From assembly GCA_022508505.1 (NCBI GenBank), contig JAFLVC010000010.1, positions 6,055-70,054 on the forward strand: a stretch of DNA of 64,000 nucleotides. The letters are read 5' to 3'. A program made the translations under genes and the position numbers. Origin of the DNA: Clostridiales bacterium (GTDB taxonomy: Bacteria > Bacillota > Clostridia > Christensenellales > Pumilibacteraceae). Position 1 is the stretch's first letter. Each line of letters begins with the position of its first letter. A model generated the notes under the pieces. That model was given only the letters and a program-made list of their open reading frames with translations, ran no database searches and was not told where the DNA came from. Below, in pieces: positions 12,071 through 18,405 of the stretch.

Positions 12071-13372
12071 TTGGAGTATTTTGCCTTTATAATTCTATCG
12101 ATCATGATACTCCTGCTCATGGTGCTAATCCATGAAGCGGGGCATTACACTACGGCAAAAATACTCGGCTTTACCATAGACGAATTTGCTATAGGCTTCG
12201 GACCGAAGCTCTTTTCTCGCCGCCGCAAAAACGGCGAGCTCTTTTCGCTTAGGGCGCTGCCGCTCGGCGGATTTTGCGCATTCTACGGCGAGGACGAGGA
12301 CGAGAACAAGCTTGATGATAATAAGTCCGAAGTAAGCGCCGACCAATCGCTTGACACTGTAGACAAAGAAAAAGATAAATCGGAAAGCGGCGAGAAAGCG
12401 TCCGACGACGACCTTTTGTCGTACGTCATGCAAAATGTCGAAAAAGAGCACGGAAGCGCCGATACGGAAAAGCGGGCGGAAACTGTTTCGCATTCCGGAA
12501 GTGTTGCTGCCGTCGCGACTGCGCCGACAAAGCCGCGACTCGGAAAGGACGGAAAGCCTGCGCTGCCGTTTAACGCTCAAAAACCGTGGAAGCGGCTGAT
12601 AGTTCTTATCGGCGGCGTGCTTTTCAATTTTTTGTCGGCGTTTATTTTTTCGCTCATTTATATAGGCGTCGTCGGGTTTCCCGTGCCCGAAATAACCGAG
12701 GTTTACACATACGTCAATCCCGAAACGCAGGCGGTAACTAAGTACAACGATTTCGAGGTTGGCGACAAGATAATCGCAATCAACGGCATTGAGATTACAG
12801 TCATGCGGTCTTACAACGACATTATCGAAGAAGTCGGCAACAAGGATACAATTAAGTTTAAGGTGCTTCGCGGCGGCAAAAAGGTTGACGTCGTCGCAGA
12901 ACGCAAGCAGATTACGCCGAGCGACGACAAGCAAAAACCGTATCTCGGGTTTGGGTACGTTCAAAAGTCGTGCTTTATCGGCAACAATGCGGGAAACGCC
13001 TTTACCTATTGCGTGCCGTACACCTTCAAACTGTCTTGGTCGATACTCGGTGCGTTCGGCGATATACTGACAGGGCGGCAGTCTATAACGAGCATGACGG
13101 GCCCCGTCGGCTCGATAAGCCTCATGGCGCAGGTGTCGGTCGCTGATTGGCGCAACATCTTGATTCTTCTTCCGCTCCTTGCGAGCAATCTCGCTATTTT
13201 CAATCTTTTGCCGTTTCCGGCGCTCGACGGCTCGCGCATGGTATTTACCGCAATAGAGTGGGTGCGAAAAAAGCCCATAAACCGAAAAGTCGAAGGCATG
13301 ATCCATTTTGTGGGCATGGTTGTACTGCTGTTGTTCGTTTTAGTGGTTGACATTTTATCTTTCGCGCTGTAA
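12071..13372 (+). CDS. rseP: RseP/RasP-type M50 intramembrane zinc protease with PDZ domain
   Basis: HEAGH, FAIGFGP, LPLGGF, NLLPFPALDGSR; position dxr-rseP-ispG. Confidence 0.95.
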   Translation: MEYFAFIILSIMILLLMVLIHEAGHYTTAKILGFTIDEFAIGFGPKLFSRRRKNGELFSLRALPLGGFCAFYGEDEDENKLDDNKSEVSADQSLDTVDKEKDKSESGEKASDDDLLSYVMQNVEKEHGSADTEKRAETVSHSGSVAAVATAPTKPRLGKDGKPALPFNAQKPWKRLIVLIGGVLFNFLSAFIFSLIYIGVVGFPVPEITEVYTYVNPETQAVTKYNDFEVGDKIIAINGIEITVMRSYNDIIEEVGNKDTIKFKVLRGGKKVDVVAERKQITPSDDKQKPYLGFGYVQKSCFIGNNAGNAFTYCVPYTFKLSWSILGAFGDILTGRQSITSMTGPVGSISLMAQVSVADWRNILILLPLLASNLAIFNLLPFPALDGSRMVFTAIEWVRKKPINRKVEGMIHFVGMVVLLLFVLVVDILSFAL

Positions 13373-13375
13373 AAT
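13347..13375 (+). promoter_or_regulatory. sigmaA promoter inside the rseP 3' end, 6 nt before the ispG GTG (leaderless)
   Basis: TTGACA(13347-52)-N17-TAAAAT(13370-75); no SD before GTG 13382. Confidence 0.65.
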
Positions 13376-13381
13376 ATACGC

Positions 13382-14431
13382 GTGAGCAAAGAGATTAAGA
13401 TTAAAAAGATTGCAATCGGCGGCGGCAACAGAATTGCCGTTCAGTCGATGACTAATACCGATACGCTCGACGCGGACGCTACCTTGGAGCAGCTTAAAAG
13501 ACTCGAATCGGCGGGCTGTGATATTGCGCGTATTGCCGTGTCGAGCAGTGCCGAGATAGAATCGTGCAAGAAAATCGTCGGAAAGACGAGCATGCCGCTC
13601 GTCGCGGACATTCAGTTCGACTATCGGCTTGCCGTCGCGGCATGCGAGATAGGGTTTGACAAAATACGCTTCAATCCCGGAAATATCGGGAGCGAAACAA
13701 ACGTAAAGCGCGTCGTCGACGCTTGCAAGGCGCACAATGTGCCCATTCGCGTTGGGGTGAATACGGGCTCGCTCGAAAAGGAGTTTAAAGCGCTTCCCGC
13801 GAGCTCTGCGCTTGTCGAGAGTGCGTTAAAGCACGTCAAGCTTCTCGAAAAGTACGGTTTTTGCGACACGGTCATATCGGTAAAGTCGTCCGACGTCAAG
13901 ACGACGGTCGACGCGTATAGACTGCTCTCTGAAAAGGTCGACTATCCGTTACATATAGGCGTAACCGAGAGCGGGAGCGACCTGCGCGGAACGGTGCGCT
14001 CTGCGATAGGCATAGGCTCTCTTCTCGTCGACGGCATAGGCGATACCGTGCGCGTTTCGCTGTCCGGAGATCCCGTAAAAGAGATCGAGGCGGCGCGGCT
14101 TATTTTGCAGGAGTGCGGCGTCGATAAAAACTACTGCGAGATAATCTCGTGCCCGACTTGCTCAAGGTGTAAGTACGACCTAAAATCGATTGTCGACGAG
14201 CTAAAAGAAGCGACAAATGACATCACGACGCACGTCAAGCTCGCCGTCATGGGCTGCGTGGTAAACGGCCCGGGCGAGGCGGAAGATGCGGACTTCGGCG
14301 TTGCGGGCGGCGGAAGCGACAAGGTCGCGCTGTTCGTTCACGGCAAGGTGATAAAGACGATAACGCAAGCGGAAATAGTGCCCGAGCTGCTTCGACTCGT
14401 GCATGACAAAATCGGAAGCGAAACAAAATGA
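13382..14431 (+). CDS. ispG: 4-hydroxy-3-methylbut-2-en-1-yl diphosphate synthase
   Basis: IAVQSMTNT, PLVADIQFD, RFNPGNIG, GIGDTVRVSL, SCPTCSRC, VMGCVVNGPGEA. Confidence 0.97.
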   Translation: MSKEIKIKKIAIGGGNRIAVQSMTNTDTLDADATLEQLKRLESAGCDIARIAVSSSAEIESCKKIVGKTSMPLVADIQFDYRLAVAACEIGFDKIRFNPGNIGSETNVKRVVDACKAHNVPIRVGVNTGSLEKEFKALPASSALVESALKHVKLLEKYGFCDTVISVKSSDVKTTVDAYRLLSEKVDYPLHIGVTESGSDLRGTVRSAIGIGSLLVDGIGDTVRVSLSGDPVKEIEAARLILQECGVDKNYCEIISCPTCSRCKYDLKSIVDELKEATNDITTHVKLAVMGCVVNGPGEAEDADFGVAGGGSDKVALFVHGKVIKTITQAEIVPELLRLVHDKIGSETK

Positions 14432-15912
14432 ACAAGATATATTCGATAATAAACGAAAGAGCGGGCGGGCAGTATAAGGACGTGAGGTTTTCTCAGGTCG
14501 TGTTTGACAACGTCGGCGCGACTGTGACGGTTACTTGTAAACCGAGCGAAATGCGCGCTATTGCCGCCGACGGCGAGCTCAAAGCGATGCTCGAAGATGA
14601 GTGCGCATTCAATCTGCCGCTCAAAATAAACGTCGTGGCAGAGGATGTTTCGGCGATTGCCGTTCGCAATGCGGTCGTCGATTTTACGCGCAAGTTTCCG
14701 TACGTCTCGTCCGTCGCGGACAATGTTACGGTTTCGGGCGAGCCGCCGACTGTCAGGATCGAAATGCACGAGAGTATGAAAAAGCTCGCGGAAGGCGACT
14801 ACGTGCCGAGGCTGAACGAGTTTTTGAAGAATAGGTACATAACGCCGATTGCCGTAGCAGTGGAAACAGCACAGCTCGAAACGTCGGCGGACGGCGAGAA
14901 AAAGCGCGAGCCCGTTGTGTACGAAATAGGCGGCTTAGAGCCGATTTTCGGCACGGTCGACGCACAAAAAGCGGTATCCGCCGCCGACGTAATCGGCAAT
15001 AACGACGATATTGCCGTGTGCGGCGTTCTTGCGATGGCGACCGACTATTTGAGCAAGGGCTCGGGCGCAAAGCACTCGCGGCCGTATCAAAAGTTTTTGC
15101 TGTACGACGGCACGGGTACGCTGCAGTGCCGCTGTTTTCCGCGCGACGGTTTTTCGCTTATCGACGCGGGCGTAGTTGGACAGACCGTGTGCGCTTTCGG
15201 AAATACAGAGGTGGAGCGCGGAAGAGTGGGCGAGACTTCTATGACGGTGCGCGGACTTTCGCGCGTCGGTACCGGCGGGCCCAAAGCGTTTGAAACTAAA
15301 AAAGCGCCCGACAAGTACGTTACAGTAAAGCCCGCACCGTATGAGGAATACGTGCAGGCGAGCTTGTTCGCAGGCGAAGATGTTTTACCCAAAAGCCTTA
15401 TGGGCTCGTTTGTCGCGTTCGACTTTGAAACGACGGGGTTATCTATACTGTACGACAAGCCGACAGAGATAGGCGCCGTTAAGATAAAGGACGGCGTAAT
15501 AACCGAAACGTTCTCGACGCTCATAGATCCCAAGCGCCCGATACCCGAAGAGGTTTCCAAAAAGACGGGAATCACCGACGACATGGTAAGAGGCAAGCCT
15601 CGGTTTGAGGACGTCTTGCCCGATTTTTACAAATTCTCTTACGGCTGCGCATTGATAGGGCACAATATAGCCTTCGACTTTCCGTTCCTCATAAAGTACG
15701 GAAATAAGTTCGGTTGGCCGTTCGGCGACCGCAGGACGTTTGATACGCTCGGCATGGCGCCCAAAGCTATTCCCGGTATCGATATTTTGACGCTCGACCG
15801 CGTTCTCGATTCTCTCGGGCTTGTAAACGACAACGCCCACCGCGCGCTCTCCGACGCCACCGCCACCGCAAAAGCGTTTATCGCAATGAGTAAAATTTTG
15901 GCGCGAAAATAA
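14428..15912 (+). CDS. PolC-derived 3'-5' exonuclease (PolC N-terminal region + OB fold + DEDDh exonuclease); lacks PHP and polymerase domains
   Basis: Occupies the ispG-polC-rimP position; OB-like 'DIAVCG...KFLLYDGTGTLQCRCF'; ExoI FDFETTG, ExoII HNIAFDF, ExoIII HRALSDA; only 494 aa, stop 20 aa after ExoIII. Confidence 0.85.
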   Translation: MNKIYSIINERAGGQYKDVRFSQVVFDNVGATVTVTCKPSEMRAIAADGELKAMLEDECAFNLPLKINVVAEDVSAIAVRNAVVDFTRKFPYVSSVADNVTVSGEPPTVRIEMHESMKKLAEGDYVPRLNEFLKNRYITPIAVAVETAQLETSADGEKKREPVVYEIGGLEPIFGTVDAQKAVSAADVIGNNDDIAVCGVLAMATDYLSKGSGAKHSRPYQKFLLYDGTGTLQCRCFPRDGFSLIDAGVVGQTVCAFGNTEVERGRVGETSMTVRGLSRVGTGGPKAFETKKAPDKYVTVKPAPYEEYVQASLFAGEDVLPKSLMGSFVAFDFETTGLSILYDKPTEIGAVKIKDGVITETFSTLIDPKRPIPEEVSKKTGITDDMVRGKPRFEDVLPDFYKFSYGCALIGHNIAFDFPFLIKYGNKFGWPFGDRRTFDTLGMAPKAIPGIDILTLDRVLDSLGLVNDNAHRALSDATATAKAFIAMSKILARK

Positions 15913-15913
15913 G

Positions 15914-16492
15914 ATGAATGAATTGGATTCAATTACAATTAAACCCGGGAGAAACTACCGAATAACGTTTGCGGTTTACAGCGCAGTTTTTTTCGCTTTG
16001 TGTGTTGACATCATAGGTGGGATTGTCAGTGCAATAAAACGGGATATTTATGATTTTGCCATGTTACAGTTTGTAGTTTTAGGTTTTGCTTTTGTTTGCC
16101 TTATCGGATATTTTATTTCCGAACTTGTTTGTCGACAAAAAGTAATAATATCTTCAAAGGAGTTAGTTAAGTATAAAGGTAATAAAATAGTTTTTAAAAT
16201 AAGTAGAAATGATATAGTCAATTTGATATATAATAAGCCAACTCTATCAATGCGACTGTTGTTTTTATTGGGCGTGTTTGTGCGCATGCCTTTTGTCGGG
16301 ATGCTGTCTATTCGATACAAAAATGCCGAGATAGATGAACCGCGAGTGCGGAATAGCTTTGAAGAATTGGTTACATTGAGTGAAGCGGAAAAAGAATCGG
16401 GAATTAAAGAGTATTTAGAATTATTAGGTGAAAAAGAATTGAAAAGAGTAAGTGCTGTCCTCAATATAAATGTAGAATATATCAGCGACTGA
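15914..16492 (+). CDS. Hypothetical membrane protein (2 TM + soluble, PH-like C-terminal part), AT-rich ORFan
   Basis: 192-aa ORF starting 1 nt after the upstream stop; visibly AT-rich with A/T-ending codons unlike all neighbours. Confidence 0.7.
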   Translation: MNELDSITIKPGRNYRITFAVYSAVFFALCVDIIGGIVSAIKRDIYDFAMLQFVVLGFAFVCLIGYFISELVCRQKVIISSKELVKYKGNKIVFKISRNDIVNLIYNKPTLSMRLLFLLGVFVRMPFVGMLSIRYKNAEIDEPRVRNSFEELVTLSEAEKESGIKEYLELLGEKELKRVSAVLNINVEYISD

Positions 16493-16580: not shown

Positions 16581-16631
16581 AAAAACCCGATCTGTGATTG
16601 GTTCTTTTTTAAAAGAAGTAAGAGAAAACGC

Positions 16632-16660
16632 TTGCAATTTATATAATAGGGTGTTATAAT
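16632..16660 (+). promoter_or_regulatory. sigmaA promoter of the rimP-nusA-infB operon
   Basis: TTGCAA-N17-TATAAT with extended TG. Confidence 0.75.
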
Positions 16661-16684: not shown

Positions 16685-16713
16685 TGAGAGTGGGTATTGG
16701 TTGCCCGCTCTCA
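16685..16713 (+). promoter_or_regulatory. rimP leader hairpin (probable attenuator)
   Basis: GAGAGTGGGTA-ttggt-TGCCCGCTCTC stem; resembles the GAGTGGG...CCCACTC hairpin commonly upstream of Firmicute rimP. Confidence 0.65.
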
Positions 16714-16756
16714 ACTGCTGTTATGGGGTGTTTATTATTTCGAGGCGGAGGGCGTT

Positions 16757-17221
16757 ATCAATAACGTTATCGAAAGGGCAAGGCCCGTCATAGAAGCGAT
16801 CGTTTCCGAATTAGGTTATGAGCTTGTCGACATAGAGTACAAGACGCTGTACGGCGATAAACACCTTATCGTGTATATCGCAAAGCAGGGCGGCGTCAGT
16901 TTGGACGATTGCGAGCTTGTTTCCAACGCGCTCGACGGTCCGCTCGACGCGCTCGATCCGACGGGCGACGCGCCGTACTGCTTGGACGTGTCGTCGCCCG
17001 GGCTTGACAGGCCGTTCAAGACGCAACGCGACTTCGAGCGCAATTACGGCGAAAAGGTGGAAGTCAAGCTTTACGCGCCGCTTCCCGGGCAAAAGACAAA
17101 GCTAATCGTAGGCGTTCTCGTAAGCAAGACGGAAAGCGCGGTGACGGTTGAGGTCGACGGTAAACCGCTCGAAATAGAAAATCAAAAAATAGCTCTCGTA
17201 AGGCCGTTCGTCGAATTTTAA
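16757..17221 (+). CDS. rimP: Ribosome maturation factor RimP, probable non-canonical ATC start
   Basis: LGYELVDIEY, GGVSLDDCELVS, YCLDVSSPGLDRPFK; GGAGG at 16747-51 sits 5 nt before in-frame ATC 16757; the only in-frame canonical start upstream (TTG 16697) is in the hairpin loop without an SD. Confidence 0.9.
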   Translation: MNNVIERARPVIEAIVSELGYELVDIEYKTLYGDKHLIVYIAKQGGVSLDDCELVSNALDGPLDALDPTGDAPYCLDVSSPGLDRPFKTQRDFERNYGEKVEVKLYAPLPGQKTKLIVGVLVSKTESAVTVEVDGKPLEIENQKIALVRPFVEF

Positions 17222-17256
17222 CGGCGGCGCCTAAAATATATTTGGAGAAAAGAAAA

Positions 17257-18405
17257 ATGGCAAAGAAAAACACGACGCTCACTCTTCAAGCCGATTTCTA
17301 CGACGCTCTTGGCGATCTCGAATCAGAGAAGGGCATCAAAAGGGAAGTCTTTATCGACGCGCTCGAGGACGCGCTTACAAGCGCTTACAAAAAGCAGTAC
17401 GGCGTTCCCAAGCAGATCAAGATGATTCTTTCGCCCGAGTCCAAAACCTTCAAAATCTACACCTGCCAAAAGGTCGTAGAGCAGGTCGAGGACCGTGAGA
17501 CCGAGATAAGCCTCGAGGACGCGCGGCTCATCGACAAGAAGTACAAGGTCGGCGACGATATTTACGGACCTGTCGACGCAAACGAATTCGGCCGTATCGT
17601 CGCGCAGATGGCCAAGCAGATAGTCACGCAAAAGCTCCGCGCCTATGAGAGCGAGCTTGCGTACAGCGAGCTTGCCGAAAAGGAAGAAGAGCTCGTCACC
17701 TGCGTCGTTCACCGCATCGACGGCAAAAACGTGTGCGTCGAGATCAACAAGATGGAGGCTATTCTTTACCCGAAGGATCAGCTCCCCGGCGACAAGTTCA
17801 AGGTCGGCGACAAGATCAAGGTGTTCGTGCGCGGCATTAAGACAGGTCAGCACGGCCCGCAGGTGCTCGTCACGCGCACCGCGCCCGGGTTTATCAAGCG
17901 CCTGTTCGAGCTCGAAGTCCCCGAGATTTCGAGTGGCGTCGTCGCAATAAAGGGCATTGTCCGCGAGGCGGGCTTGCGTACAAAGATGGCTGTGCATGCC
18001 AACGATTCGGGCGTCGATCCCGTCGGCGCGTGCGTCGGCAACCGCGGCTCGCGCGTAAACAGCATCATTTCCGAAGTGGGCGGCGAAAAGATAGACATCA
18101 TACCGTGGCACGAGGATCCGTTGGAGTTTATCGCGCGCGCACTGCTTCCCGCCAAGGTCGTCATGGTCGAGGCCAAGGAGGACGAGCACGCGGCCAAGGT
18201 CGTCGTCATGGACGATCAGCTCAGCCTCGCAATCGGCAGAGAGGGTGTAAACGCCCGCCTTGCCGCAAAGCTCACCGGCTGGAAGATAGACATCAAGCCG
18301 TACTCGGCGATGGAAAAAGAGGTCAAGGCGGCCACCGAGCGTGCCGAGCAGATGGGCAGCGACAACTTCGACGTGTTCGAAGAGGACCTCGGAGAGCTCG
18401 ATTGA
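17257..18405 (+). CDS. nusA: Transcription termination/antitermination factor NusA
   Basis: EFGRIVAQMAKQ, VREAGLRTKMAV, DPVGACVGNRGSRV, GEKIDII, LSLAIGREGVNARLAAKLTGWKIDIK; start moved to ATG 17257 behind GGAG. Confidence 0.98.
   Translation: MAKKNTTLTLQADFYDALGDLESEKGIKREVFIDALEDALTSAYKKQYGVPKQIKMILSPESKTFKIYTCQKVVEQVEDRETEISLEDARLIDKKYKVGDDIYGPVDANEFGRIVAQMAKQIVTQKLRAYESELAYSELAEKEEELVTCVVHRIDGKNVCVEINKMEAILYPKDQLPGDKFKVGDKIKVFVRGIKTGQHGPQVLVTRTAPGFIKRLFELEVPEISSGVVAIKGIVREAGLRTKMAVHANDSGVDPVGACVGNRGSRVNSIISEVGGEKIDIIPWHEDPLEFIARALLPAKVVMVEAKEDEHAAKVVVMDDQLSLAIGREGVNARLAAKLTGWKIDIKPYSAMEKEVKAATERAEQMGSDNFDVFEEDLGELD

Follow-up and report, generated by a model that had tools for sequence, protein, structure and literature searches.

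A PolC relic as a predicted stand-alone exonuclease in uncultured gut Clostridia

PolC, DnaE and their proofreaders

PolC is the main replicative polymerase of Gram-positive bacteria. It starts with a PolC-specific N-terminal domain (NTD) and an OB fold, and its PHP domain is split by the insertion of a DEDDh exonuclease. The NTD has been proposed to bind the clamp loader (PMC3919608). In Bacillus subtilis the PolC exonuclease proofreads DnaE in trans, and a polymerase-deficient PolC still stimulates DnaE synthesis (Paschalis et al. 2017, PMC5627055). In E. coli the proofreader of the DnaE-type polymerase is a separate DEDDh polypeptide, epsilon (DnaQ). The exonuclease module of C-family polymerases is gained, lost and re-attached during evolution, notably in Clostridia, as is seen in DnaE1 variants with an N-terminally fused DnaQ exonuclease and in clostridial PolCs that lack the exonuclease insertion (Timinskas et al. 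2014, PMC3919608). Replication without PolC in some Clostridia had already been noted in the same survey, and the division of labour between PolC and DnaE1 in Clostridia has been an open question since their combination was described there. We here describe a large group of uncultured gut Clostridia in which polC has been cut down to a conserved protein of some 500 residues, while a DnaE-type enzyme is the only replicative polymerase left. Literature searches for a truncated PolC or a PolC-like stand-alone exonuclease yielded no description of such a relic.

The locus and its parts

The window analysed is a stretch of 64,000 nucleotides of a Clostridiales bacterium (GCA_022508505.1, contig JAFLVC010000010.1, positions 6,055 to 70,054). 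In the slot between ispG and rimP, where relatives have a full polC at exactly this place, it contains an ORF of 494 residues, which we call mini-PolC. The gene order is frr-uppS-cdsA-dxr-rseP-ispG-[ORF]-(192-aa ORF)-rimP-nusA-ylxR-L7Ae-infB-rbfA. The relevant features are:

13382..14431 (+), ispG, the upstream neighbour, also conserved next to polC or mini-PolC in relatives; its stop overlaps the ATG start of mini-PolC (ATGA)
14428..15912 (+), the mini-PolC gene (494 aa), a PolC ortholog lacking PHP and polymerase
14428..14877 (+), PolC-type N-terminal domain (residues 1-150), two alpha/beta subdomains
14905..15297 (+), OB fold (residues about 160-290)
15298..15405 (+), linker replacing the first PHP segment (residues 291-326)
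15355..15369 (+), QASLF, candidate beta-clamp-binding motif (residues 310-314)
15406..15909 (+), DEDDh 3'-5' exonuclease domain (residues 327-494), with ExoI (FDFETTG, residues 331-337) at 15418-15438, ExoII (HNIAFD, 412-417) at 15661-15678 and ExoIII (HRALSD, 471-476) at 15838-15855
15914..16492 (+), low-GC (0.33-0.39) ORF of 192 aa without Pfam or NCBIfam hit, not part of the conserved arrangement; in relatives rimP follows within about 40-330 nt
16697..18405 (+), rimP-nusA, the conserved downstream neighbours of polC

The first-pass annotation had placed the ORF and its motifs correctly. Pfam finds RNase_T at residues 329-484 (PF00929, E 3e-33) and a weak OB hit at 215-274 (PF01336), but nothing beyond these, that is, no polymerase core (PF07733). 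The NCBIfam PolC model matches only the exonuclease part (positions 424-589), with 126 bits against a cut-off of 873. Plain HMM scans do not detect the N-terminal region at all. Profile-profile comparison (hhalign) with full PolCs of the same order, however, does: the probability is 96.7% for the NTD (E 3.9e-10), 98.7% for the OB fold (E 2.4e-16) and 99.4% for both together, in collinear order (E 1.1e-21). The predicted structure (AF2) has a mean pLDDT of 88.7, and its best fold match in the PDB is the PolC of E. faecium (9qpc, 376 columns, E 3e-15). In the alignment with full PolCs about 75 residues of the first PHP segment are missing between OB and Exo, and the protein ends about 18 residues after ExoIII, within the last helix.

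The exonuclease itself looks active. D332 and E334 are kept in 138 of 138 cluster representatives, and D417, H471 and D476 in 137 of 138. In the OB fold G199 is invariant, and D227 (135 of 138) and F237 (137 of 138) are nearly so. The best sequence matches of the exonuclease are those of PolC, DinG and DnaQ DNA exonucleases (E 1e-54 to 1e-25), with the T. maritima PolC exonuclease 2p1j (E 2.6e-54) and 9qpc (E 1.9e-47) among them. RNase T, which appears among the fold matches, is far weaker in sequence (1e-10). A role in RNA metabolism, e.g., in 3' trimming linked to the downstream rimP-nusA-infB ribosome and transcription genes, is therefore very unlikely, although DEDDh exonucleases include RNases. 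The position upstream of these genes is simply inherited from polC, and a clamp-type motif makes no sense for an RNase.

Distribution, origin and selection

The genome is a 25-contig draft that is 96.8% complete. It has dnaN and a single C-family polymerase (one PF07733 hit), a DnaE1-type enzyme. A tblastn search of the whole genome with 16 PolCs of the order found nothing beyond DnaE, the mini-PolC exonuclease and a weak exonuclease-like ORF that lacks the canonical DxE. All 24 congeneric genomes share this state, as do about half of the families of the order: the same gene of about 500 aa sits in the same slot in about 100 of 201 genomes, distributed over about 18 families and consistent within families. 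The order is probably the Christensenellales of GTDB, as judged from record titles; NCBI taxonomy does not resolve the named relatives (Ca. Coproplasma, Ca. Gallimonas) to an order. There are 354 clusters at 50% identity with E <= 1e-30, nearly all of 500-545 aa. Outside the order the N-terminal profile matches only within PolC frames of 1200-1600 aa, apart from a few shorter frames (517-894 aa) that were not inspected. In a five-gene tree the PolC-bearing genomes form one group, separated from the mini-PolC genomes with a bootstrap support of 100, which fits a single ancient truncation.

The gene is not decaying. Since the nearest congeners of the genome itself are too distant (dS 1.2-2.3, some estimates undefined), dN/dS was estimated from closer pairs within the genus. 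It is 0.055-0.12 overall, 0.08-0.15 for the NTD, 0.05-0.15 for the OB fold and 0.01-0.10 for Exo, against 0.04-0.085 for ispG. Between families the identity of NTD/OB/Exo is 18/24/44% in mini-PolC and 15/28/44% in the full PolC of the sister clade, at similar ispG divergence. A pseudogene fragment, or an assembly or binning artefact with the real polC missing from the draft, can thus be practically excluded: the intact gene also occurs in genomes that are 99-100% complete in 3-10 contigs, no other PolC fragment is present, and the flanking genes are contiguous on both sides in the window. A search for expression or read support, however, returned none.

The candidate clamp motif

The linker between OB and Exo is variable, apart from Y297, P302 and a short island, Q-x-[NSD]-[LMIF]-[FL]-[DE], about 17 residues before ExoI. 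The motif is present in 131 of 135 close and medium homologues, 13-20 residues before ExoI. In the 138 cluster representatives Q is kept in 118, a hydrophobic residue (L/M/I/F/V) at the fourth motif position in 135, and F/L/Y/I/M at the fifth in 136; about 14% thus lack the Q, and a few lack the motif altogether. It resembles the internal clamp motif of the DnaE of these genomes, Q[VMLIF]S[LFI]F (QVSFF in this genome). The sister PolCs lack it at that site and end in NQLSLF, NQLSFF or SQISLF, while mini-PolC ends in KILARK. The alignment places the motif at the end of the former first PHP segment. The pLDDT is below 50 at residues 312-314, and the exposure of the motif rests on pLDDT alone.

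Possible functions of mini-PolC

The gene is the orthologous descendant of polC. In the ancestor of a large subclade of the order, polC lost the first PHP segment and everything after the exonuclease, i.e., the second PHP half, the polymerase core, the HhH motifs and the C-terminal QLSLF clamp motif. What remains is a protein of 490-560 aa with NTD, OB fold and exonuclease, and with a new clamp-binding-type motif in the flexible linker. The only C-family polymerase left is a DnaE1-type enzyme with its own clamp motif, C-terminal domain and intact PHP site, so DnaE1 must copy both strands.

The first-pass annotation had considered the protein as remodelled into an epsilon-like trans-proofreading subunit for DnaE, not as decay, and had inferred that a Firmicute might replicate without a full PolC. 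None of the observations that would have spoken against it was made: there is no full polC elsewhere in the genome, no relaxed selection, no general absence of the motif in orthologs, and no split gene or assembly break. The interpretation is thus supported, yet the step from a conserved exonuclease with a clamp-like motif to a proofreader of DnaE is still inference. Most likely, though by no means certainly, the motif docks the exonuclease on the beta clamp beside DnaE1, much as E. coli epsilon appears to use its own clamp motif next to the exonuclease fold. The NTD and the OB fold, via the clamp loader and ssDNA, respectively, would keep the protein in the replisome, and mispaired 3' ends released by DnaE1 would be trimmed in trans, as is reported for the B. 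subtilis PolC exonuclease. Clamp binding, DNA as substrate and coupling to DnaE1 are inferred.

The DnaE1 of these genomes, however, keeps all nine PHP metal ligands (HHDHEHCDH) in 15 of 15 sequences, so it may proofread by itself, and the exonuclease could serve another pathway. PHP is held to be the proofreader in many DnaE1-only bacteria, and Clostridia to carry redundant “active” proofreaders (PMC12926913). It remains possible, but is less likely, that mini-PolC is a clamp-associated exonuclease for DNA repair or end processing, e.g., for mismatch-repair excision, removal of blocked or damaged 3' ends, or gap processing; clamp motifs are also common in repair proteins. Against this view, the retention of NTD and OB at PolC-like rates suggests that the ancestral replisome contacts are kept, the exonuclease is closest to PolC proofreading domains, and the gene kept its position and the overlap with ispG.

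The protein could also be kept mainly as a replisome scaffold, with NTD and OB performing an essential non-catalytic job inherited from PolC, such as a clamp-loader or ssDNA contact or polymerase hand-off. A bare exonuclease would not need these domains, which are nevertheless under purifying selection, and most congeners carry additional stand-alone DEDDh exonucleases of 180-260 aa. This appears unlikely, as the exonuclease is the most conserved part of the protein and its catalytic residues are almost always kept.

More speculatively, and less likely than not, mini-PolC is an obligatory third subunit of a re-invented Pol III core (DnaE1 + mini-PolC + beta), held together by the newly evolved clamp motif and the old contact between NTD and clamp loader, a convergent copy of the E. 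coli alpha-epsilon-beta arrangement built from PolC parts. By extension, in ordinary PolC+DnaE1 Clostridia the indispensable contribution of PolC would be its NTD-OB-exonuclease module rather than its polymerase, and DnaE1 would be the bulk replicase.

The clade is a natural deletion experiment. The polymerase of PolC could be lost once DnaE1 was there, yet NTD, OB and exonuclease were kept under selection as strong as in true PolC, and a clamp-type motif was re-created next to the exonuclease. In practical terms, PolC-targeting antibiotics such as ibezapolstat (PMC12592400) should have no polymerase target in this abundant group of gut commensals. Annotation pipelines currently label the protein only “3'-5' exonuclease” or “hypothetical”.

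Comparison with known systems

With PolC-type DNA polymerase III, mini-PolC shares the genomic slot and the homologous NTD, OB fold and DEDDh exonuclease. It lacks both PHP halves, the palm/thumb/fingers core, the HhH motifs and the C-terminal QLSLF, and it carries a clamp-type motif in the OB-Exo linker.

Like E. coli epsilon, mini-PolC is a separate DEDDh exonuclease polypeptide beside a DnaE-type polymerase, and it passes the TIGR00573 domain cut-off (90.7 against 71.5 bits). In both, a clamp-type motif lies directly next to the exonuclease fold, N-terminal in mini-PolC, but probably C-terminal in epsilon. Mini-PolC is of independent origin, from PolC, has about 325 extra N-terminal residues (NTD and OB) and has no equivalent of the C-terminal segment by which epsilon binds the alpha PHP domain. 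Its presumed partner DnaE1 has an intact PHP site, unlike E. coli alpha.

In the trans-proofreading of B. subtilis, too, a PolC-type exonuclease acts on 3' ends made by a DnaE polymerase. There, however, PolC is full length and remains the main polymerase, and the DnaE is of the DnaE3 type without an active PHP. Here the polymerase part is gone for good and the DnaE is of the DnaE1 type.

The DnaE1 variants with a fused DnaQ exonuclease and the clostridial PolCs without the exonuclease insertion keep a polymerase, whereas here the polymerase is lost and the accessory domains survive as a separate protein. Fragments without a polymerase active site were discarded in the survey that described them (PMC3919608).

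Finally, a DEDDh exonuclease also coexists with a PHP-proficient DnaE1 in the case of the additional mycobacterial DnaQ (as cited in PMC12926913). Its origin and architecture are different: it has no PolC NTD or OB.

The locus and its product

The open reading frame in the polC position encodes 494 aa, and its ATG overlaps the stop codon of ispG. The neighbourhood reads frr-uppS-cdsA-dxr-rseP-ispG-[ORF]-(192-aa low-GC ORF)-rimP-nusA-ylxR-L7Ae-infB-rbfA. The first-pass annotation had placed three exonuclease motifs and a clamp-like motif in this frame, and all of them are indeed found there. The relevant features are:

13347-13375, near-consensus sigma-70-like promoter (11 of 12 positions) preceding ispG
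14428-14431, overlap of ispG and the ORF by 4 nt (ATGA)
14428-15912, + strand, the 494-aa ORF, here called mini-PolC
15355-15369, QASLF, residues 310-314
FDFETTG, residues 331-337
HNIAFD, residues 412-417
HRALSD, residues 471-476
15914-16492, 192-aa ORF starting 1 nt after the mini-PolC stop
16587-16601, terminator-like hairpin before rimP
16632-16660, promoter-like site before rimP

The promoter and the ATGA overlap suggest an ispG-miniPolC operon with translational coupling. The 192-aa ORF has a GC content of 0.33-0.39, against about 0.52 in its neighbours, and no Pfam or NCBIfam match. In relatives, rimP follows mini-PolC within about 40-330 nt, so this ORF looks like a recent insertion.

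Pfam finds RNase_T at residues 329-484 (E 3e-33) and a sub-threshold OB hit at 215-274. The NCBIfam PolC model matches only with its exonuclease positions 424-589, and the score of 126 bits is far below the cut-off of 873. An AlphaFold2 model built on 35 homologues is confident, with a mean pLDDT of 88.7. It predicts two alpha/beta subdomains (1-150), a beta-barrel (about 160-290), a linker and the exonuclease fold (327-494). The only residues with a pLDDT below 50 are 150-158 and 312-314, the latter being the S-L-F of QASLF. The best structural match in the PDB is E. faecium PolC (9qpc), over 376 columns spanning OB and Exo, at E 3e-15. By sequence profile, the exonuclease is closest to the T. 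maritima PolC exonuclease domain (2p1j, E 2.6e-54) and to E. faecium PolC (E 1.9e-47).

Homology of the N-terminal region

The N-terminal part is that of a PolC. Full PolCs (about 1330-1460 aa) were taken from 16 genomes of the same order, and the profiles were compared with hhalign. Residues 17-146 of mini-PolC match residues 27-165 of the PolC NTD with a probability of 96.7% (E 3.9e-10), and the OB fold matches with a probability of 98.7% (E 2.4e-16). Taken together and collinear, the probability is 99.4% (E 1.1e-21). In a direct alignment, about 75 residues of the first PHP segment (KRVELHLHT...ITDHG...) are missing between OB and Exo. The short linker aligns with the tail of that segment, and the protein stops right after the ExoIII helix.

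Replicative polymerases of the genome

No other PolC was found in the genome, which comprises 1.89 Mb in 25 contigs and is 96.8% complete. It has a single PF07733 match, a 1185-aa DnaE on another contig, downstream of whiA. The PolC model finds nothing else. A tblastn search with 16 PolCs of the order hits only DnaE, the mini-PolC exonuclease and a weak exonuclease-like ORF without a canonical ExoI motif. This last ORF, on contig C22 (30842-31570), encodes 243 aa and has weak RNase_T/PolC-exonuclease similarity but no canonical DxE; it is probably an inactive or divergent exonuclease-like domain, and its neighbours look like phage or defence genes. The gene dnaN is present.

The DnaE has all nine PHP metal ligands (HHDHEHCDH), an internal clamp motif (QVSFF) and a C-terminal domain, which is the DnaE1 type. 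The same holds for all 15 DnaEs examined, 7 from mini-PolC genomes and 8 from PolC genomes. Although the genome lacks the PolC polymerase, it shows a Firmicute-like gene-strand bias. On contigs of at least 40 kb, about 73% of long ORFs lie on the majority strand of each contig, and GC skew and AT skew have the same sign, i.e., the leading strand is purine-rich. This estimate is crude and lacks comparison genomes, yet it bears on the debated link between PolC and strand bias.

Distribution and origin

All 24 other genomes of the genus have the same pair, an ORF of about 500 aa plus a DnaE of about 1200 aa, and no PolC. Most of these congeners carry, in addition, a stand-alone DEDDh exonuclease of about 180-260 aa (for example at 101583-102131 of contig C1 in the congener G022). 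It matches the PolC exonuclease model even better (E about 1e-40 to 1e-44) than mini-PolC does; the genome studied here has no such gene.

Of 201 genomes of the order, distributed over 42 families, 97 have a PolC above the family cut-off, two more have a PolC broken by contig ends, and about 100 have none. The state is uniform within families: about 18 families carry mini-PolC and about 24 carry PolC. Some of the mini-PolC genomes are 99-100% complete in 3-10 contigs. Families with mini-PolC have markedly smaller genomes (0.8-2.3 Mb) than families with full PolC (1.3-4.5 Mb); loss of the polymerase therefore goes with genome reduction. In every locus fetched where the flanks are visible, the order is ispG-(PolC or mini-PolC)-rimP-nusA.

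A maximum-likelihood tree of concatenated ispG, nusA, rseP, dxr and rimP from 27 genomes puts all PolC-bearing genomes in one group with a bootstrap of 100. Since PolC is the general state in Clostridia, this fits one ancient truncation. In a sample of 399 genomes of the class, end-to-end matches to the N-terminal profile in 500-560-aa frames occur only in this order. Elsewhere nearly all matches lie inside PolC frames of 1200-1600 aa, apart from a few shorter frames (517-894 aa) that were not inspected. In a library of 1.84 billion cluster representatives, 354 clusters match the N-terminal profile at E <= 1e-30, and the top 150 are almost all 500-545 aa. The record titles of carriers include Ca. 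Coproplasma, Ca. Gallimonas, Ca. Scatosoma, Ca. Onthoplasma, ‘uncultured Christensenella sp.’ and ‘Christensenellaceae bacterium’, mostly animal and human gut MAGs. We infer that the order is GTDB Christensenellales, although NCBI taxonomy does not resolve it.

Selection

The ratio dN/dS was determined for nine close pairs within the genus, with the neighbouring ispG as control.

Table. dN/dS in nine close pairs within the genus (dS 0.16-1.4)
Region: dN/dS
Whole gene: 0.055-0.12
NTD: 0.08-0.15
OB: 0.05-0.15
Exo: 0.01-0.10
ispG (neighbour, control): 0.04-0.085

Between families, mean identity in mini-PolC is 18% for the NTD, 24% for the OB fold and 44% for Exo. The same domains of full PolCs in the sister clade show 15%, 28% and 44%, at comparable ispG divergence (49% and 53%). 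The three surviving domains are therefore as constrained as they are inside a working PolC. The DEDDh residues are kept in 137 of 138 cluster representatives.

A candidate clamp-binding motif

Of 135 close and medium homologues, 131 carry Q-x-[SNDGT]-[LMI]-F, ending 13-20 residues (mode 17) before the ExoI aspartate; the commonest forms are QSSMF and QASLF. Among 138 representatives of the wider family, Q is kept in 118, position 3 is N, S, D, T or G in 131, position 4 is L, M, I, F or V in 135, position 5 is F, L, Y, I or M in 136, and the next residue is D or E in 70. The flanking linker positions, in contrast, are variable. A minority lineage has lost the Q but keeps x-[VIM]-F-[DT] (for example VKSVFDEE, ITDMFTDT), and a few members have Q-x-[TS]-I-D instead.

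This is the pattern of a short linear motif. It fits the usual beta-clamp consensus QL[SD]LF and the internal motif of the DnaEs of these same genomes, Q-x-S-[LF]-F-[DE]. The sister PolCs have nothing like it at the aligned position; they end in NQLSLF, NQLSFF or SQISLF. So the ancestral clamp motif was lost with the polymerase, and a new motif of clamp type appeared next to the exonuclease. Because the exonuclease is an inserted domain in PolC, its two ends lie close together. By inference, a motif just before the fold would therefore sit about where the clamp motif of epsilon sits after it.

Possible mechanism

DnaE1 must be the replicase for both strands, because it is the only C-family polymerase present. 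We propose that mini-PolC is its clamp-tethered exonuclease partner. The motif would dock on the clamp, the NTD would keep the contact with the clamp loader that has been proposed for PolC (PMC3919608), and the OB fold would bind template ssDNA. Mispaired 3' ends would then be removed in trans. The main caveat is that DnaE1 here retains an intact PHP site; proofreading may be shared, or the exonuclease may serve repair instead. There is direct precedent for removal in trans. In B. subtilis, the PolC exonuclease proofreads DnaE errors within a template-DnaE-PolC complex, and a polymerase-deficient, exonuclease-proficient PolC improves DnaE synthesis (PMC5627055).

The first-pass annotation had described a stand-alone PolC-type exonuclease with a clamp-binding-like motif and had considered it to be remodelled into an epsilon-like trans-proofreading subunit for DnaE. 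The observation is confirmed, and the interpretation is supported as far as sequence analysis can take it; clamp binding and trans-proofreading are plausible, yet no interaction has been tested.

Relation to known systems

That some Clostridia have only DnaE1, and that some clostridial PolCs lack the exonuclease, was already noted by Timinskas et al. in 2014 (PMC3919608), who removed fragments without a polymerase active site from their survey. The 2026 survey of bacterial polymerases lists three systems (DnaE1-only, PolC+DnaE1, PolC+DnaE3) and assigns stand-alone DnaQs conservatively; a PolC-derived one is not mentioned. Our full-text searches found no description of a truncated PolC of this kind, and public annotations call the protein ‘3'-5' exonuclease’ or ‘hypothetical protein’.

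Having no polymerase and no PHP, the protein lacks what defines a PolC. It scores as a DnaQ domain, but does not have the alpha-binding tail of epsilon. We regard it as a separate subunit of the proofreading type, which differs from those already known in being built from PolC accessory domains.
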